Virus record (IMG/VR): IMGVR_UViG_2908567220_000002
Span: 33,901 to 97,900 of that record
Origin: a virus
Lineage: Duplodnaviria > Heunggongvirae > Uroviricota > Caudoviricetes
Direction: 5' to 3' (one strand)
Length of the DNA: 64,000 bases
This document shows, in pieces, positions 8,846 to 59,828 of the stretch (position 1 is its first letter; the number at the start of each line of letters is the position of its first letter). The position numbers and the translations under genes are program-made. Below the pieces are notes generated by a model that was not told the origin of the DNA, did not search any database, and was given only the letters and a program-made list of their open reading frames with translations.

Positions 8846-9265
8846 ATGGTTCATGAAGATAAAGCGCGTAAAGAGTTCGCCAGTAGGCTTGCGCTAGCCT
8901 GTGAAAACGCTGGTTATGAACAACATGGAAGGCAGGCAGAAATTGCCCGTCGAATGAAATTAACACCAAAAGCGGTTAGCAAATGGTTTAATGGCGAAAC
9001 AATTCCTCGCCGGGAGAAATTAAGGGAATTAGCAACACTAATAGGAACAACACCAACCTATCTTTTGGGAGAGGATACAGAAGAAAGTGGACAGGTACGT
9101 TTCTATCAGGAGTTAAATCCAAGACAAAAAATCATCATTGACCTTCTGGACGAGCTCCCTGACAGTGAGACAGATGAACTTTTAAAAACTCTTGAAGAGA
9201 AAAAACAGAAGTACAATGCAATTTACGAAGAGTTAGCACGAAAGAAAAAACAAAAAGCCTCTTAA
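8846..9265 (+). CDS. Prophage repressor (RacR/DicA-like HTH, no S24 peptidase domain)
   Basis: 139 aa; N-terminal HTH region; C-terminal 50 aa nearly identical to B's repressor at 57655..58074. Confidence 0.7.
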   Translation: MVHEDKARKEFASRLALACENAGYEQHGRQAEIARRMKLTPKAVSKWFNGETIPRREKLRELATLIGTTPTYLLGEDTEESGQVRFYQELNPRQKIIIDLLDELPDSETDELLKTLEEKKQKYNAIYEELARKKKQKAS

Positions 9266-9559: not shown

Positions 9560-9715
9560 ATGGATACTATCGATCTTGGCAACAACGAATCTCTGGTATA
9601 CGGCGTGTTTCCCAACCAGGACGGAACGTTCACCGCGATGACGTATGCCAAAAGCAAAACGTTTAAAACCGAATCTGGCGCGCGTCGTTGGTTGGTAAGA
9701 CATTCAGGTGAATAA
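9560..9715 (+). CDS. ydfA: YdfA-like protein
   Basis: 51 aa MDTIDLGNNESLVYGVFPNQDGTFTAMTYAKSKTFKTESGARRWLVRHSGE. Confidence 0.75.
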   Translation: MDTIDLGNNESLVYGVFPNQDGTFTAMTYAKSKTFKTESGARRWLVRHSGE

Positions 9716-9716
9716 A

Positions 9717-9863
9717 ATGAACGAAACAGAATTAAAACACGTTATCGCTCTGCTTCTGGAGGATGCAAAACGCCTCCAGCAACTGGAACCAAATGCAGGC
9801 ACTGAAGCCCGCATCTGGCTGGCATTGTACGCTATTGAGTCAGGTCGTGATGATGAAGGTTAA
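9717..9863 (+). CDS. YdfB-like small protein (tentative)
   Basis: 48 aa MNETELKHVIALLLEDAKRLQQLEPNAGTEARIWLALYAIESGRDDEG; hand-translated, below track cutoff. Confidence 0.55.
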   Translation: MNETELKHVIALLLEDAKRLQQLEPNAGTEARIWLALYAIESGRDDEG

Positions 9864-10144
9864 GCATCATCTAAGTTTTTTACATAGCGCCCATTAGATT
9901 CGGTAACAAGAACACCGGGATTTTTCTTAACTTTTGAGGCCACTGATTCAGCAAGGTCAGCAACAGATTCTTTGTCTTCATTCTTGCTTGAATATATATA
10001 TTCGGCATTAGGAAGACGGTAGGTGTTCCCTAAAGAGGTTGTAATCGTTCTGGAGAATCCCTTTGCTTCCATTCGTTCATGAAGCTTATCGTAATCAGCG
10101 GAACTGGAATCGCGAAGTTCGATCCTGACTGTAAATTTTGCCAT
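9860..10144 (-). CDS. Hypothetical protein encoded antisense to the early-left operon
   Basis: Start MAKFTVRIELRD with GGAGGA SD 4 nt upstream. Confidence 0.5.
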   Translation of the reverse strand: MAKFTVRIELRDSSSADYDKLHERMEAKGFSRTITTSLGNTYRLPNAEYIYSSKNEDKESVADLAESVASKVKKNPGVLVTESNGRYVKNLDDA

Positions 10145-10159
10145 TTTATCCTCCATTTA

Positions 10160-10455
10160 GGTTCTGGGTTAGAAATGGAGACCAATACGGGGCTACGTGT
10201 GGTCGTGCGCCGGACACGGATAAGAATCCGGCACTGACAGTTTACTGAAAGGATATTTCCCTGAAAAGTCAGGGCATAACACGAAAGCGTACGGCGAAGG
10301 CCTTCACCTATGAGGCTTGTCGTTAATTTCTTCGACCGTGCGCTTCCGGTTGTGGCACTCCGCGAAATGGCGCGGCGGTAAGTATGGCGGGGTTATTCCT
10401 TCCCCCGTTGAGGACACCGGGTTGTCAGGTTGACCATACGCTTAAGTGACAACCC
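10160..10455 (+). other. Conserved non-coding element (also upstream of DicF in prophage B at 59100-59410)
   Basis: ~290 bp highly similar between prophages with small indels, no conserved ORF; inverted repeats GGGTTGTCA / TGACAACCC. Confidence 0.5.
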
Positions 10456-10504
10456 CGCCATAACTCATACTGCTATAGATATATGGGGACTAACCGGAGG
10501 AAAA

Positions 10505-10726
10505 ATGATAGTTCAATGCACAGACGGGAATAATAAGCTGCTCTGGTCATACGATACCGTCAGCCAGAAACACATAATGAATATGACTTTTATAAAGGAC
10601 GGTACTCAACAAAAAATCATTACCGCCCTTGCAAGTGCATTAACTCAGGCGACAAGCCAAATTCTGCTATCTGATAACGTTAATGGAGTATCTGATATTG
10701 GCTCGATGACCGGGAGGGAGTGCTAA
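10505..10726 (+). CDS. Small hypothetical protein (73 aa)
   Basis: GGAGG SD 5 nt before ATG; MIVQCTDGNNKLLWSYDTVSQKH...; lies in the segment that replaces DicF. Confidence 0.4.
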   Translation: MIVQCTDGNNKLLWSYDTVSQKHIMNMTFIKDGTQQKIITALASALTQATSQILLSDNVNGVSDIGSMTGREC

Positions 10727-10930
10727 TACAACATTCCAGTAACCCGAGTGGGGCACGGTAATATTGGCAGGGAATCGTTCATAGAAACCGCCGTAATAGG
10801 TAAAACGCCCGCCCCGCTTGAAAGCCTGGTAATTTGAATCATCCATTAATAAAACATTAATCTGGTGTGAACATTGAACCCTGACAAGGTCACCATCATT
10901 CATGTGTTCACGACTATGTATATGGGACAT
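10667..10930 (-). CDS. Small hypothetical protein (88 aa), convergent with and overlapping the preceding ORF by 60 nt
   Basis: AGGAG SD then ATG; MSHIHSREHMNDGDLVRVQCSHQINVLLMDDSNYQAFKRGGRFTYYGG... Confidence 0.5.
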   Translation of the reverse strand: MSHIHSREHMNDGDLVRVQCSHQINVLLMDDSNYQAFKRGGRFTYYGGFYERFPANITVPHSGYWNVVLALPPGHRANIRYSINVIR

Positions 10931-11456
10931 AAACACTCCTTTTTACTGTGGAAAGCTAAATCATATCACGGTCTATGAAGTAAAAAGTGAATTTCGTGAT
11001 GCGGTGAATGCGGCTCAGCGCACGCAGAACAGTTAAAAACACAAGTGTTATGGGTGAATCATCCGGCGTTAATTGCTAACTGGTTAACGTCACCTGGAGG
11101 CACCAGGCACCGCATCACAAAGTTCACTTAGGTGATGAAAGGTAGAGAAAATGTTGAATGTAGCTATTGAAAACCAGAACGGGTGGAATTATAGTGCACC
11201 TGCACCTCATAAAACGGGTGCCGGGCGTGGAAACCCGATGTTCACTAACGCGCATAACCGCGCTCAGGCGGTTTTTTTATGCGTAATGCACAGCCACATT
11301 CAGATTATGGTGGGACGTGCAGGGCAGCCGCAAGGCTGGCCGGGTTCGTTAGTGACCGGTATTTCCACCCCTGTACGTCTCACCACCCTTATGGTCGTGG
11401 AAAACCTTGGTGGTGAGTTAATCAAATTCACTAACGAGGCTGCTATCATGGCTACT

Positions 11457-12002
11457 ATCCCTACCCTTTCTCAACCTGACGTAACCATCGAAAATGGTCG
11501 CGCTGTCACTACGTCTGTTGCGATCGCCGAGTTCTTTGGCAAACGCCACGACAATGTTATTCAAAAAATAAAATTACTGGATTGCTCCCCTGAATTCACT
11601 GCCCTTAATTTTAAGGTGAGCGAATACACCGACTCAACCGGGCGCAAACTCCCTATGTACCAAATCACCAAAAACGGCTTCGTTTTCCTGGTGATGGGCT
11701 TCACGGGCAAAAAAGCCGCAGCTTTCAAGGAAGCCTACATCGCTGAATTCGATCGCATGGAGGCAGAGTTGTACCAGCTTAATACCACTACCACAGACAA
11801 AATAATTCCTGGTGATGGTCGCACTCTCGTTGTTCACTTCGACGAACGCGGCAATATCAAATTCACCGAAACCGTTCCTGACGGCGCTCTCGTCTGTACT
11901 CTGGATACTTTCCGCTTTTATCTGGAGAAGCAGGGGTGGACTCTTGTAAACAGGAGCGCAATTAAAAATATGACCGTCGAGCAGTTGCTGAGTATTAAAT
12001 AG
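11457..12002 (+). CDS. Rha-family phage regulatory protein (antirepressor-like)
   Basis: Start MATIPTLSQPDVTIENGRAVTTSVAIAEFFGKRHDNVIQKI matches Rha N-terminal domain; tracked ORF 11151..12002 extends upstream. Confidence 0.65.
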   Translation: MPTLSQPDVTIENGRAVTTSVAIAEFFGKRHDNVIQKIKLLDCSPEFTALNFKVSEYTDSTGRKLPMYQITKNGFVFLVMGFTGKKAAAFKEAYIAEFDRMEAELYQLNTTTTDKIIPGDGRTLVVHFDERGNIKFTETVPDGALVCTLDTFRFYLEKQGWTLVNRSAIKNMTVEQLLSIK

Positions 12003-33738: not shown

Positions 33739-34092
33739 TCAGCGGCGACGGTTAACGGCAGGCGGTACGCCCCGTCCAAGCCAGAGATGACAACTTCCGC
33801 CATCATCCGGCGAAACCCGATCTACCCAGAAATTTTCCTCACCGATGGTCAGCGTGTCTCCACGCCGCAGCTGCCGCACCTCATCAGTCCGGACAAACAG
33901 GGACGGGCTGGAGCCTTCAACGCGCACGCCCTGTCCGGCATAGCTGATATTTTCAGGGTCATCAAAAACACCACGTATCACAGCACCGGACTGCTCACCG
34001 GATGTCATGGTGGCTGACGTTCCCATGTACCCGCGTATCGTTTCATCAGCGCGAGCAATGGCAGCATCGAACAGGTTATCGAAATCAGCCAC
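33739..34092 (-). CDS. FII: Head-tail joining protein FII
   Basis: 117 aa; lambda gpFII-like. Confidence 0.9.
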   Translation of the reverse strand: MADFDNLFDAAIARADETIRGYMGTSATMTSGEQSGAVIRGVFDDPENISYAGQGVRVEGSSPSLFVRTDEVRQLRRGDTLTIGEENFWVDRVSPDDGGSCHLWLGRGVPPAVNRRR

Positions 34093-34103: not shown

Positions 34104-34502
34104 TTATTGCATTCTGGCCAGGCCACGTTCTGTCATTTCGGCTGCCACACCGGCAGAGACACGAAACGCCGTTCCCGGCAGCACAAATGCCACAGGTTTA
34201 TCCCGCGTGGCGTGAAGTGCATCAGTATGCAGCGTCACCAGTGCCACGACCGTGACCAGTTCAGCCGTATCCTGAATCACGGTATCCGGCTGCGCTGATA
34301 CCACCTCATTTTCATGCCCGGTCAGCACATTTTCCCGGCTGAGAGGGGTGTCCTGACCGGCAGTTTCATCCGTGTCATCAAGCTCTTCTTCCAGCTCTGC
34401 CACACGAAGCGCCAGTTCTTCTTTCGTTCCCGTCAAACTGACATCGCGGTTCAGTTGCTCACCCAGCTCCTGAAGACGGGCAATCAGTTCATCTTTCGTC
34501 AT
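34104..34502 (-). CDS. FI: DNA packaging protein FI
   Basis: Start MTKDELIARLQELGEQLNRDVSLTGTKEELALRVAEL (tracked ORF extends to 34541); lambda gpFI-like. Confidence 0.9.
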   Translation of the reverse strand: MTKDELIARLQELGEQLNRDVSLTGTKEELALRVAELEEELDDTDETAGQDTPLSRENVLTGHENEVVSAQPDTVIQDTAELVTVVALVTLHTDALHATRDKPVAFVLPGTAFRVSAGVAAEMTERGLARMQ

Positions 34503-34543
34503 GAACTCCTCCACAGAGAGAAAATGGCCCCGAAGGGCCATGA

Positions 34544-35569
34544 TTACGCCAGTTGTACAGACACGAACTCATCAGGATCAGCCAGCAGCATCAGCGGTGC
34601 TGACTGAATCATGGTGAACTCACGCGCCGGATCGCCGGTGGTCACCCAGTTTTTCGGGTAACGGGCAGAGGCGTTAATGCCTTCGCGCTGTGCGTCCGCA
34701 TCCTGAATGCAGCCATAGGTGCGCAGACCGCGTGCCTGAGTGTTCCCCAGCACCATCGTGTTGTCCGGCAGGAAGTTCTTTTTGACGCCGTTTTCCACGT
34801 ACTGTCCGGAATACACGACGATGGCCACATCGCCATACATCCCCTTGTAGGACACCGCTTTGCCCAGGTCTTTCACCGCTGTCTCCAGCTCGGAATGAGA
34901 GCCGCGACGAGTATCCAGCTTCTCCTTGACGGCTTTGAAGGAACGGAACAGCGCCCAGCCTTTCGGATCAAACACGATGATATTCACCACTCCGCTGGCG
35001 TTCAGCGCGTAGGCTTCGATATCGTCGGTCGGGTCATACGTGGACTTGTCACGCTTGCTCCACTCCGTGCTGCCGGACTGCGTGATGTTGTTGGCCGCAC
35101 TGCGGCCCATATCCACCTCAACCGGATCGAAGGCTTCACCGGTCATGGTGTATTTGCCCTTAAGCACGGCAGAAACTGCCTGCATCTCTTCCACCTGGGC
35201 AATGGCCAGCTCTTCGTCACGCATGTTCTGCATGATGATGCGACGGCGACGGTAAGCCGGGTCCGCCAGATTCTGCGGATCTTCATCCGGCAGGCGACGC
35301 AGGGTCATCTGCGGATTCACTTCATGCTTGGGTTTGACATATCCCGGCGTAAATTCAGAGGTGGAGCCGCCACGGGAGCGGATAACCTCACCGGAAACAA
35401 TCGGCGAAACGTACAGCGCCATGTTTACCAGTCCCGGAATTTGTGAGAGATAGACTTTTTCCGTGGTGAAGGGATAGCTCTCACGGAAAAAGAGACGCAG
35501 AAACAGCGGATCAAACTTAAATTTCTGCTCATTTGCCGCCAGCAGCTGGGCGGTTGTGTACATCGACAT
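34544..35569 (-). CDS. E: Major capsid protein E
   Basis: Start MSMYTTAQLLAANEQKFKFD; 341 aa; lambda gpE-like. Confidence 0.95.
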   Translation of the reverse strand: MSMYTTAQLLAANEQKFKFDPLFLRLFFRESYPFTTEKVYLSQIPGLVNMALYVSPIVSGEVIRSRGGSTSEFTPGYVKPKHEVNPQMTLRRLPDEDPQNLADPAYRRRRIIMQNMRDEELAIAQVEEMQAVSAVLKGKYTMTGEAFDPVEVDMGRSAANNITQSGSTEWSKRDKSTYDPTDDIEAYALNASGVVNIIVFDPKGWALFRSFKAVKEKLDTRRGSHSELETAVKDLGKAVSYKGMYGDVAIVVYSGQYVENGVKKNFLPDNTMVLGNTQARGLRTYGCIQDADAQREGINASARYPKNWVTTGDPAREFTMIQSAPLMLLADPDEFVSVQLA

Positions 35570-52089: not shown

Positions 52090-52245
52090 TTACTCCTCAG
52101 GTTCGTAAGCTGTGAAGACAGCGACCTCCGTCTGCCCGGTTCGGATTCGTACCTCGCAGAGGTCTTTCCTCGTTACCAGTGCCGTCACTATGACGGTTAA
52201 ACAGATGACGATCAGGGCGATTAGCATCGCCTTTTGCTGCTTCAT
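52090..52245 (-). CDS. hok: Hok/Gef family type I toxin
   Basis: 51 aa MKQQKAMLIALIVICLTVIVTALVTRKDLCEVRIRTGQTEVAVFTAYEPEE. Confidence 0.9.
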   Translation of the reverse strand: MKQQKAMLIALIVICLTVIVTALVTRKDLCEVRIRTGQTEVAVFTAYEPEE

Positions 52246-52456
52246 AGCCTGCTTCTCCTTGCCTTTCGGCACGTAAGAGGCTAACCTACGTGTGTAGAGC
52301 ATAGATATGGCCTCAGATTAATGTTAAGCGTCTTGCCGGACGCGTAATGTTAACTGGGGCTTTTCTCTATCTGCCTTTTGGTGTTCATGCCTGAGACAGA
52401 TAGCCTCAAGCACCCGCTGCAATTCTACTTAACTCTCCTTTTCCCGCAAACCGTTT

Positions 52457-57554: not shown

Positions 57555-57654
57555 AGCTACTCCTTAGTAAACACAGCAAAGAATACCCACAGGTAAACAA
57601 AAGTCAATACCCACAGGTTGTTTACCTTGCGGTAATCGCATCTATTATTTACCT
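57555..57654. promoter_or_regulatory. Divergent promoter/operator region (OR-like)
   Basis: Two direct AATACCCACAGGT repeats; related palindrome TACCCATGGGTA occurs twice at ~58110-58160. Confidence 0.5.
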
Positions 57655-58074
57655 ATGGACAAATATGAATTTAGACGACAGCAACTCATCAAAATTCGTG
57701 ATGAGAAATGCGATGGTAAAGCGGTTAACGTGGCCAGAAAGATCGGGCGCGAGCCTTCTTATGTATCAAGAATGTTGTACCCAGAGGGGAAAAAGGGAAA
57801 AAAACGGATCGCTGATGATATGGTGGAGATTATCGAAGAGTCCTTTGGGTTACCCCGGGGATGGATGGATGGTATCGTTTCATCATCAACGAACACAGCC
57901 TCCAGTTATGAAACAAGGGTTCTAACGCCACGACAACGTATTTTTTTAGATCTCTTAGACGAACTGCCAGAAAGTGAAGCGGATAAATTATTAAAAACTC
58001 TTGAAGAGAAAAAACAGTATTACAATATGATCTACGAAGAAATCCGTAAAAAGAAAGCACAAAACGCATCATAG
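57655..58074 (+). CDS. Prophage repressor (RacR/DicA-like HTH, no S24 peptidase domain)
   Basis: 139 aa; N-terminal region differs from A's repressor, C-terminal ~50 aa nearly identical. Confidence 0.7.
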   Translation: MDKYEFRRQQLIKIRDEKCDGKAVNVARKIGREPSYVSRMLYPEGKKGKKRIADDMVEIIEESFGLPRGWMDGIVSSSTNTASSYETRVLTPRQRIFLDLLDELPESEADKLLKTLEEKKQYYNMIYEEIRKKKAQNAS

Positions 58075-58339
58075 CTCACCAAACAACTAGTCACCAGTTA
58101 AGACACCGCAAAAATTTACCCATGGGTATTTACTTTTTAAATACCTATGGGTATCCTTCTTTTCATACCAACCCACCCCGCCCCACAGAATGCAGGGCAA
58201 TACTTCGAGTTACCAGGCAGTGGTCAGGGGTTAAGTAGCCAGCCCGAGGCGTAAGAACATGACGGCAGGGTTCAACTTTAATAACTATGCAGCAGGTTTT
58301 TGTTCCGCTACCCCGGCGTTAAGGGGAAATGAGGTCAGC

Positions 58340-58492
58340 ATGGATACTATCGATCTTGGCAACAGCGAATCTCTGGTATGTGGCGTGTTCCCCAACCAGG
58401 ACGGTACGTTCACCGCGATGACGTATACCAGAAGCAAAACGTTTAAAACTGAAGCTGGCGCGCGTCGCTGGTTAACCAGAAACACTGACTGA
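58340..58492 (+). CDS. ydfA: YdfA-like protein
   Basis: 50 aa MDTIDLGNSESLVCGVFPNQDGTFTAMTYTRSKTFKTEAGARRWLTRNTD. Confidence 0.75.
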   Translation: MDTIDLGNSESLVCGVFPNQDGTFTAMTYTRSKTFKTEAGARRWLTRNTD

Positions 58493-58503
58493 TGAGGTTG
58501 ACG

Positions 58504-58824
58504 ATGGAATTTAAAGATTTACCAGTACCATTCCAGGAAATGGCATCGAATGTGGTTCGCTCTCAACTGGCGACTCTTGACCTGAGTACCGTAGAAAAAG
58601 AAACCATCGACAATATATCCGGTAACGTACGCCGAGCCTTTATCGGGCTGTACGAAGAGAAGCAGCTCTCTGATAACCAGGATTTACATGAAAAATACTT
58701 CCTGGATCTAATGGACATCATTGATAAGGGGTTTGGCTTGTTAATGAAAAAGAAAGGGATTCGAATAGAACCCCTTGAAAATTACTTTGCAACAAAAAGC
58801 ATTAATTCTTTTGATTCAAAATAA
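58504..58824 (+). CDS. Hypothetical protein (106 aa)
   Basis: Start MEFKDLPVPFQEMASNVV with GAGG SD; replaces the YdfB-like gene of prophage A. Confidence 0.45.
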   Translation: MEFKDLPVPFQEMASNVVRSQLATLDLSTVEKETIDNISGNVRRAFIGLYEEKQLSDNQDLHEKYFLDLMDIIDKGFGLLMKKKGIRIEPLENYFATKSINSFDSK

Positions 58825-59077
58825 GAGAATTAATTACAGACTTAACATGCTCTTTCTCATGATTGAAGCTCTCATGATTGAAAGTGCCGGGTTGAAGCGA
58901 GTCGATATAATCAACAAGACTCTGTCGTACGACTTCATTTTTATCCATAACAGATGCAAGAAATGAAATTGCTAAAAGAGTTATATCACTACGCGCCGCA
59001 GCATGTTGCAATGCTTTATCAAAATTATTAATCTGGCGTATCAGGGAGTTAATGATTTCATCATTTTCAGTCGACAT
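58802..59077 (-). CDS. Hypothetical protein (91 aa) antisense to the early-left operon, convergent with the preceding gene
   Basis: Start MSTENDEIINSLIRQINNFD with AGGAGGG SD; tracked ORF 58802..59290. Confidence 0.45.
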   Translation of the reverse strand: MSTENDEIINSLIRQINNFDKALQHAAARSDITLLAISFLASVMDKNEVVRQSLVDYIDSLQPGTFNHESFNHEKEHVKSVINSLILNQKN

Positions 59078-59411
59078 TTCACCCTCCTGAGGGTTGGTGA
59101 TTAAGGAGTTCTCCACGGGTGAGGTGGAGTGCGTGCGCCGGACACGGGTGAGCATCCGGCACTGACAGTTTACTGAAAGGATATTTCCCTGAAAAGTCAG
59201 ACCATAACGCGAAAGCGCACGGCGAGGTAGCTGGTTCATAGATAGCCTGTCGTTAAATTTTCGTCGACCGTGCGCTTCCGGTTGTGGCAATCCGCGAAAT
59301 GGCGCGGCGGTAAGTATGGCGGGGTTATTCCTTCCCCCGTTGAGGACACCGGGTTGTCAGGTTGACCATACGCTTAAGTGACAACCCCGCTGCAACGCCC
59401 TCTGTTATCAA

Positions 59412-59468
59412 TTTTCTGGTGACGTTTGGCGGTATCAGTTTTACTCCGTGACTGCTCTGCCGCCCTTT
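59412..59468 (+). ncRNA. dicF: DicF small RNA
   Basis: TTTCTGGTGACGTTTGGCGGTATCAGTTTTACTCCGTGACTGCTCTGCCGCCCTTTTT matches DicF as recalled, including terminator hairpin and U-tail. Confidence 0.8.
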
Positions 59469-59639: not shown

Positions 59640-59828
59640 ATGGAAACGTTATTACCAAACGTTAATACGTCTGAAGGTTGTTTTGAAATTGGTGTCAATA
59701 TCAGTAACCCTGTATTTACTGAAGATGCCATTAACAAGAGAAAACACGAACGGGAGCTATTAAATAAAATATGCATTCTTTCAATGCTGGCCCGTTTACG
59801 TCCGATACAAAAAGGATGCTGGCAATGA
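59640..59828 (+). CDS. dicB: Cell division inhibitor DicB
   Basis: 62 aa METLLPNVNTSEGCFEIGVNISNPVFTEDAINKRKHERELLNKICILSMLARLRPIQKGCWQ. Confidence 0.85.
   Translation: METLLPNVNTSEGCFEIGVNISNPVFTEDAINKRKHERELLNKICILSMLARLRPIQKGCWQ

Follow-up and report, generated by a model that had tools for sequence, protein, structure and literature searches.

The early-left operons of several lambdoid phages and prophages carry a gene on the opposite strand. In phage lambda, sieB (34482-35036) lies antiparallel between N and ral. The Rac prophage of Escherichia coli K-12 has the order racR, ydaG, ydaF (DUF1391), an antiparallel sieB with a 4-nucleotide (nt) overlap with ydaF, the small RNA (sRNA) gene kilS and kilR, and the K-12 prophage e14 contains ymfI antiparallel in the early-left operon beside the repressor gene, overlapping the convergent ymfJ by 63 nt. 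In P22, sieB belongs to a set of four systems that the prophage expresses; it aborts the development of superinfecting phages (PMC10883804), and its translation is controlled by the antisense RNA sas (PMC7067206, PMC12197685). Genes antisense to lytic genes are in general typical accessory (moron) loci (PMC7067206). In dicBF-type prophages, a promoter located upstream of ydfA and controlled by the repressor drives the polycistron (PMC10448788). Here we describe a locus of comparable layout in a stretch of 64,000 nt from a Caudoviricetes virus (IMG/VR record IMGVR_UViG_2908567220_000002, positions 33,901 to 97,900), hereafter called the window, which contains the immunity regions of two lambdoid prophages, A and B, both of the Qin (dicBF) type. 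Each has a small minus-strand gene (A-minus and B-minus) inside its early-left operon, and in B this gene converges with a plus-strand gene, B-plus. The reading that we favour, and hold to be rather probable, is that the minus-strand genes are cargo of a strand-fixed, exchangeable moron slot at the sieB position, are expressed in the lysogen and likely serve exclusion or defence; its regulatory and functional steps are predicted.

B-plus (58504..58824, plus strand) codes for 106 aa and B-minus (58802..59077, minus strand) for 91 aa, and the two genes overlap by 23 nt (58802-58824). The Shine-Dalgarno (SD) sequence of B-minus, AGGAGGG (59082..59088, minus strand), stands 4 nt before its ATG. 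A-minus (9860..10144, minus strand) codes for 94 aa and has the SD sequence GGAGGA (10154-10149, minus strand) 4 nt from the ATG. All these coordinates, strands, lengths and SD sequences, as well as the overlap in B, had been given in a model-generated description of the window (the original prediction), and they agree with the sequence. In identical DNA of other E. coli, RefSeq and its Prokaryotic Genome Annotation Pipeline (PGAP) called exactly the same coding sequences (CDSs), with both B genes as 'hypothetical protein' (B-minus as WP_000102678).

Block comparison with the K-12 prophage Qin delimited the slot. Prophage B is homologous to Qin up to 58471 and again from 59092, and only 58472-59091 is variable, replacing ydfB and ydfC; to the right, the ydfC-dicF spacer, dicF, dicB and ydfD are 97% identical to their Qin counterparts. 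Prophage A is homologous to Qin up to 9719 and again at 10204-10458, and only 9720-10203 is variable in the slot region. The left flank is formed in both cases by a ydfA homologue with DUF1391 on the plus strand. In B this is the first early-left gene (58340..58492; PF07151, E=6.6e-27), Qin-like up to 58471, and in A it is a PGAP-called gene at 9560..9715, with Qin-like sequence up to 9719. The right anchor is the ydfC-dicF spacer, which in B (59092..59413) is 97% identical to Qin, has a GC content of 55% and contains the leader of B-minus on the minus strand. Its equivalent in A is the conserved spacer at 10204..10458, which corresponds to B 59132-59390 with 91% identity. Both minus-strand genes abut this spacer, and the variable blocks relative to Qin end there, which bears out the earlier proposal that the two dissimilar genes occupy the same slot. 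As judged from these alignments, the slot lies between the small genes on the ydfA side and the conserved spacer in front of dicF in dicBF-type lambdoid prophages.

A census was made of 120 IMG/VR contigs harvested by an exact 33-nt match to the spacer, which is present in all of these loci; the gene next to it was classified. The slot was occupied by a minus-strand gene in 50 of the 120 contigs, and these genes fell into 13 sequence types, to which the window adds one copy each of B91 (B-minus) and A94 (A-minus). Throughout the 120 loci, the slot-gene types were never found on the plus strand and the plus-strand genes never on the minus strand. The K-12-like arrangement with ydfC directly at the spacer was present in about 50 contigs, and in nine (the L046 and L073 groups) B-plus was followed by an almost empty slot of ~64 nt. 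The original prediction of a variable slot whose genes run against the early-left operon is supported by these counts. The 13 types are t65 (61 aa, zinc-ribbon-like), t68 (64 aa), t66b (66 aa), t73b (69 aa), t73a (73 aa), t77 (77 aa), B91 (91 aa), t92 (92 aa), A94 (94 aa), t106 (106 aa, a membrane protein), t143 (143 aa, weakly SLATT-like), t148 (148 aa, a membrane protein) and t177 (177 aa). For t65, t68 and t73b, with open reading frames (ORFs) of 65, 68 and 73 aa that begin with MEDKM…, the start was set at the second Met. The protein of type t177, from locus L137, is SieB (PF14163, 55.5 bits at a gathering score of 26, E=6.3e-15), and the t177 leader shares homology with the upstream region of sieB in Rac. 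Judged by gene layout, the slot is the positional equivalent of the sieB locus in Rac, lambda and P22 and of ymfI in e14.

Different minus-strand ORFs were found at exactly this place in prophages whose flanks are 92-97% identical. In comparison with the t73a loci, the non-homologous stretch of B covers only 58777-59061, while homology extends over the SD sequence, the ATG and the initial codons on one side and over a downstream hairpin on the other. Three leader classes were distinguished, each of them common to unrelated ORFs. The class I leader ends in tcaggagggtgaaATG and precedes B91, t77, t73a and t92, the class II leader ends in aatggaggataaaATG and precedes A94, t68, t65 and t73b, and class III comprises the leaders of t106, t143, t66b, t148 and SieB. 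Alleles without any relationship have leader, SD sequence and start codon in common, and some of them also a terminator; whole coding bodies are therefore swapped by recombination in the conserved flanks. At the level of sequence, the comparison demonstrates a strand-fixed slot in which unrelated small genes are exchanged in this manner. The cargo genes are compositionally foreign; all have a GC content of 35-41% (35% for B-minus, 40% for A-minus), whereas the window has 50% and the spacer 55%.

Among 5426 complete E. coli genomes, the B cassette was present in 198 and the A cassette in 5, and the flanks in ~4700. The B91 cassette was also observed in prophages with kilR instead of dicB downstream (loci L014, L015 and L143); hence the division-inhibitor module and the slot with its cargo move independently of each other. 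Behind the stop codons of t143 and t148, both class III cargo (loci L039 and L120), a part of the class I leader (gtgccggatgctcacccgtgtccggcgcacgc...) was present again; cassettes can therefore be inserted within the spacer and possibly stacked. Furthermore, ~9 loci (L023, L021, L101 and others) had a minus-strand 66-aa zinc-ribbon gene (MNTIKFSCPECGG...) to the left of ydfC, an arrangement that suggests a second antiparallel slot upstream of ydfC.

The minus-strand ORFs might be annotation artefacts, that is, frames that are open by chance opposite genuine genes of the plus strand. AT-rich DNA often contains antisense ORFs, the relatives of B-minus are confined to a single narrow clade, and gene callers place its start differently, resulting in products of 91, 117, 127 or 145 aa. 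We nevertheless consider an artefact barely credible. The original prediction had turned on whether homologues with conserved coding potential exist, and for B-minus they do. In the diverged copies (metagenome contigs L003-L005, the IMG/VR contig L036 and the genome locus L143), 44-47 of 276 positions differ (16-17% DNA divergence), and the 91-codon frame is intact with zero indels. The ratio of nonsynonymous to synonymous substitution rates (dN/dS) of B-minus was 0.28-0.32 in frame, as compared to 0.63-0.94 in the two alternative frames, and purifying selection thus acts on B-minus. B-plus had a dN/dS of 0.22-0.24 in frame and >1.8 off-frame over its conserved 273 nt, and in-frame values of 0.15, 0.06 and 0.08 were obtained for t73a, t143 and t66Zn, with off-frame values near or above 1. 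For A-minus, dN/dS was uninformative, with just 5 differences among the copies, and a 17-nt deletion was present in two of the five genomic copies. The artefact explanation is further opposed by the strong SD sequences, by the matches of A-minus to protein family models and by the fact that no plus-strand gene covers the body of either minus-strand ORF. The 145-aa form of B-minus, found in many annotations, was rejected, as its 54-codon extension crosses the conserved spacer and the frame is broken by indels of 3, 4, 5 and 11 nt between leader variants; the artefact is the long N-terminal extension, not the core ORF. By the selection on its frame in the case of B-minus, and by the family-model matches in that of A-minus, both minus-strand genes are shown to be real genes.

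B-minus is an orphan. When 5.8 billion proteins were searched with a word index and 1.84 billion representatives were scanned in full with HMMER, only relatives with at least 76% identity, plus fragments, were retrieved, and these relatives are confined to Escherichia and Salmonella. One remote sister type was recognized in t92, with 28% identity over 86 residues (pairwise E=9e-6), and a joint profile of B-minus and t92 added just further members from E. coli and Salmonella. Nothing meaningful was obtained for B-minus in sequence searches of Pfam, NCBIfam, PHROGs, PADLOC or the PDB. The homology searches that the original prediction had recommended thus assign B-minus to a narrow Escherichia/Salmonella clade and identify A-minus as distantly YmfI/GhoS-like. 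An AlphaFold2 model of B-minus, based on a 6-sequence alignment, has helices at residues 2-45, 48-60 and 68-90 (predicted local distance difference test, pLDDT, 73.7; predicted template modelling score 0.47). The protein is small and acidic (net charge -4), with three amphipathic helices in the model and no stretch of membrane-spanning length.

A-minus matched the NCBIfam model YmfI_phage (NF051477) with 51.2 bits (E=1.3e-13) over model positions 1-82 of 89 and phrog_8894 with E=2.6e-23, and it aligned with K-12 YmfI end to end at 23% identity. Its score is far below the YmfI equivalog cut-off of 140 bits, K-12 YmfI itself reaching 161.5 bits. According to these family scores, A-minus is a distant relative of YmfI, not an equivalog, and the likeness gives position and fold class only, since YmfI has no assigned function. 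The protein is hydrophilic. At its 3' end, A-minus overlaps by 4 nt a plus-strand ORF of 51 aa (9708..9863), a truncated remnant of a longer phage gene that matched only N-terminal parts of phrog_30817, phrog_12693 and phrog_2982. The designation of this ORF as YdfB-like in the original prediction could not be upheld, as it has no similarity to K-12 YdfB and its PGAP equivalent is a C-terminally truncated pseudogene. Its motif LKHxIALLLEDAKRLQQLEPNAGTEARIW is fused to the N-terminal module of B-plus in t92-type prophages (locus L012, 4001-4402), so that the small early-left genes are mosaic at the level of domains.

The convergent overlap in B is readily explained by the cassette boundary. B-plus (phrog_6937, E=6e-67; N-terminal part common to phrog_1363, phrog_2151 and phrog_9419) consists of a module of residues 1 to ~55, which is present beside seven different minus-strand genes, and its last 16 codons (58777-58824) are variable-cassette DNA. 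Its homologues are 106, 109, 110, 124 or 133 aa long, the length being set by the adjoining minus-strand gene. The 23-nt overlap follows from the position of the cassette boundary and is therefore not a conserved feature. In eight slot types, the end of the plus-strand ORF reaches 0-41 nt into the 3' end of the minus-strand gene, and the overlap, judged from these sequences, is a consequence of packing.

For the slot, a toxin-antitoxin-like cassette had been considered possible in the original prediction. B-plus and B-minus could form a pair, or A-minus could be an antitoxin of type V (GhoS-type). The two B genes are short neighbours that overlap, A-minus is annotated by PGAP as 'type V toxin-antitoxin system endoribonuclease antitoxin GhoS', and the Pfam GhoS model (PF11080) matched A-minus with E=0.0012. 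We regard such a cassette as very improbable. The B genes are convergent, not co-transcribed, and do not co-vary; the partner of B-plus is B91 in some loci and t73a in others, or the slot is emptied, and as its N-terminal module occurs beside seven different minus-strand genes, there is no specific pairing. The GhoS match of A-minus amounts to 19.2 bits, under the gathering score of 21, as compared to 138.8 bits for K-12 GhoS. Default BLASTP gave no alignment between A-minus and K-12 GhoS, and relaxed BLASTP (E=1.2) and phmmer (E=0.11) gave insignificant ones. No GhoT-like hydrophobic ORF of at least 20 aa was found adjoining 9860-10144 on the minus strand. A-minus resembles GhoS in its similar size, in the weak profile similarity and in the PGAP name; it differs in that K-12 ghoT follows ghoS after 27 nt in a chromosomal two-gene operon, whereas A-minus is located in a prophage slot without an adjacent ghoT-like gene. 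On the basis of these searches, the label 'GhoS antitoxin' is considered unsupported for A-minus.

The slot genes are probably expressed in the lysogen, as their placement would suggest, and their products probably act in exclusion or defence, to judge from position, orientation and the one SieB allele. In the predicted course of events, a DicA/cI-like repressor would silence the plus-strand operon in the lysogen, while a promoter located in the conserved spacer or close to it would drive the minus-strand gene, with transcription ending at the gene's own hairpin. Upon induction or derepression, early-left transcription would read antisense through the minus-strand gene and would shut it down via transcriptional interference and the formation of an RNA duplex. 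Because the plus-strand promoter lies upstream of ydfA, a dicBF-type operon, once derepressed, must read antisense through the minus-strand genes, and a collision of these genes with early-left transcription, as proposed in the original prediction, is plausible from the gene arrangement. The products would benefit the lysogen, and their most likely role against other phages is superinfection exclusion or abortive defence; B-minus may act as a small soluble three-helix protein and A-minus as a GhoS/Cas2-like alpha/beta protein that possibly binds or cuts RNA.

An intrinsic-terminator-like hairpin of 9 bp with a U-run was detected by a terminator scan and RNA folding at 58745..58776 on the minus strand, 26 nt past the B-minus stop codon and inside the B-plus CDS. 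On the plus strand no U-run follows this hairpin, and homology with the t73a-type loci resumes exactly at 58776. As to initiation, a weak candidate sigma-70 promoter, TTTTCA-17-TAAACT, is located on the minus strand at 59167..59195, 89 nt upstream of the B-minus ATG, and the same candidate is contained in the spacer of A (10239-10267). It was the top position-weight-matrix match upstream of all eight class I and class II types, 88-94 nt from the ATG, and was kept in 101 of the 120 loci. A second promoter candidate between dicF and dicB (59575-59548) was dropped, as it is destroyed in A by a deletion. In A, a longer minus-strand transcript is possible, because a DUF1883 gene (10667..10936) lies upstream of A-minus on the same strand.

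The same regulatory signals could be taken to mean that the slot is an antisense regulator or insulator, sending convergent transcription into the operon upstream of DicF, DicB and YdfD and thereby damping leakage in the lysogen, with the proteins as secondary passengers. The slot directly precedes the dicF spacer and is oriented against the operon in every case, and leader and candidate promoter are kept even in at least 41 loci without a minus-strand gene, where an antisense RNA to ydfC would result. DicF, DicB and YdfD are toxic, and processing of the operon is RNase III-dependent (PMC10448788, PMC5069750). P22 sieB is itself tied to the antisense RNA sas (PMC7067206, PMC12197685). A purely transcriptional role, however, does not require intact, unrelated proteins, and the protein sequences are under purifying selection and preceded by strong SD sequences. 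Moreover, prophage A has a slot gene yet neither dicF nor dicB, and the promoter is a weak candidate. We therefore rate the insulator as an unlikely explanation.

Several results also weigh against the reading of the slot genes as lysogen-expressed exclusion or defence cargo. The candidate promoter scored 8.3, which equals the median best score of shuffled sequence, it is conserved also in loci without a minus-strand gene, and a stricter consensus promoter scan found nothing upstream of either minus-strand gene. No terminator was detected for A-minus in the terminator scan. Neither B-minus nor A-minus matched the PADLOC defence models or SieB. The single-sequence model of A-minus was of low confidence (pLDDT 53), with a beta-alpha-beta-beta-alpha pattern compatible with a ferredoxin/Cas2-like fold, and its Foldseek matches, which included Cas2 at E about 0.4, were insignificant and not used. 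Foldseek matches of the B-minus model were generic helical bundles such as ribosomal protein bS20, with best E-values of 0.44 against the PDB and 0.85 against BFVD, and were uninformative. Other roles in lysogenic conversion are equally compatible with the data.

The original prediction had further suggested an anti-defence function. According to this explanation, the slot would hold anti-defence or other lytic-cycle genes that help the phage itself and are made during infection or induction. Small, acidic, fast-evolving and orphan-like proteins in a hypervariable phage locus are typical of anti-defence genes, and ral, a neighbour in the pL operon of lambda, is annotated with restriction alleviation. 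The orientation, however, bars co-transcription with the early genes in all 13 types. SieB is among the alleles, and others are membrane proteins or SLATT-like, as is typical of host-side exclusion. In addition, many carriers are cryptic prophages with decaying lytic functions in which the slot ORFs are still intact. In view of the antisense orientation, the SieB allele and the layout of Rac, lambda and e14, an anti-defence role is less likely than defence or exclusion; overall we give it a small chance.

Beyond the favoured reading, we put forward a more tentative idea, which we think possible though doubtful. The spacer in front of dicF may function as a fixed 'expression dock', in which a common leader, SD sequence and start codon, and for some types a terminator, would let unrelated small coding bodies be exchanged among E. 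coli and Salmonella prophages. The dozen uncharacterised cargo families would then be a reservoir of new, minimal single-protein exclusion or host-modulating factors, including the three-helix family of B91 and t92 and the orphan YmfI/GhoS-like proteins, which would be switched off by convergent early-left transcription upon induction.

The plus strand of B has the order repressor, ydfA, B-plus, DicF, dicB, a DUF1482 gene and a large exonuclease. The DicA/cI-like repressor of 139 aa is encoded upstream of the early-left operon by a PGAP-called CDS (57655..58074, plus strand; phrog_5736, transcriptional regulator, E=6e-70; NCBIfam DicA on the C-terminal part). Downstream in the operon follow the sRNA gene of DicF (59414..59465, plus strand; Rfam RF00039, 76.7 bits) and dicB for a cell-division inhibitor (59640..59828, plus strand; PGAP on identical DNA). 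In A, the early-left order begins with a repressor of likewise 139 aa (8846-9265). Only the C-terminal ~39 codons of the two repressors are common (75% DNA identity over 116 nt), and the A repressor has a Pfam HTH_3 domain, whereas no helix-turn-helix model of Pfam matched the B repressor in its N-terminal part. The two prophages therefore differ in immunity specificity on a common scaffold. B also contains a palindrome, TACCCATGGGTA...TACCTATGGGTA, between the repressor gene and ydfA (58117-58153), which the terminator scan labelled 'terminator-like', and TACCCACAGGT repeats between the cro-like gene and the repressor gene (57585-57620); both are probably operators.

Prophage A lacks dicF. 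The stretch that holds dicF (10459-10983) is replaced, between conserved spacer blocks, by the minus-strand DUF1883 gene (PF08980, E=1.1e-24), which was recognized in the block comparison and by PGAP and could represent another antiparallel accessory gene of this operon or belong to a single minus-strand transcript. A plus-strand ORF at 10430/10505-10726 converges on it with a 60-nt overlap of the 3' ends, a further pair of the kind formed by B-plus and B-minus, and phrog_21096 matches residues 33-90 of this ORF. Further downstream, dicB and ydfD are replaced at 11151-12002 (plus strand) by the sRNA isrK (11202-11278), the C4 antisense RNA (11303-11390) and a gene of the Rha family. A 283-aa ORF and the PGAP CDS in identical DNA contain both of these RNA genes in their 5' part, and the start of the ORF was therefore probably called too far upstream. 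In each prophage, the antitoxin RNA sok (Rfam RF01794) was detected on the minus strand, at 2521-2696 (110 bits) and 52240-52415 (117 bits). These hok/sok-type loci, type I toxin-antitoxin systems, are situated ~7 kb from the immunity regions, towards lower coordinates.

Should the slot genes be exclusion or defence factors that the lysogen expresses, they offer about a dozen tiny, uncharacterised candidates (61-177 aa) that are easily cloned with their native leader for phage panels. Two corrections concern existing annotations, namely the misleading name 'GhoS antitoxin' and the over-extended 145-aa gene calls. The well-studied dicBF operon of Qin-type prophages holds a sieB-equivalent hot spot, which is relevant to DicF and DicB regulation in pathogenic strains with several copies. 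The moron concept and the antiparallel sieB are already established, so that the gain is incremental unless a function is shown, and no new principle is otherwise involved.

Similar to the slot genes, the sieB loci of P22, lambda and Rac consist of a single antiparallel gene inside an early-left (pL-type) operon that abuts or overlaps the 3' end of its neighbour. The antiparallel position by a DUF1391 gene, upstream of an sRNA gene and division-inhibitor genes, is found in the window as well, and the order repressor, ydfA, minus-strand gene, dicF and dicB in B is the same as in Rac. B-minus and A-minus differ from SieB in that they have no sequence similarity to it (no match to Pfam PF14163) and lack its N-terminal hydrophobic membrane segments, and neither an Esc-like internal start nor a sas-like antisense promoter was found for the slot genes. 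The architecture of an antiparallel moron or sieB gene in the pL operon is already known. Literature searches, including those with the protein accessions, retrieved no description of this slot, of its cargo or of the sharing of leader, SD and start sequences; the part not previously characterised comprises the B91/t92 family, the orphan YmfI/GhoS-like gene, about ten further small families and the sharing of leader, SD sequence and start between unrelated alleles. Among morons and hot spots, lambda rexAB, bstA beside the repressor gene of BTP1 and the variable defence hot spots of P2-like prophages resemble the slot in their presence/absence polymorphism and deviating base composition (PMC7067206; PMC9122126). 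An own terminator, as in B-minus, placement against lytic transcription and the presence of exclusion genes among the cargo are further common traits (PMC7067206; PMC9122126). The slot differs from these loci in that its cargo consists of very small single genes (61-177 aa) matching no known defence system, and in that its unrelated alleles share the SD sequence, the start codon and the first codons.

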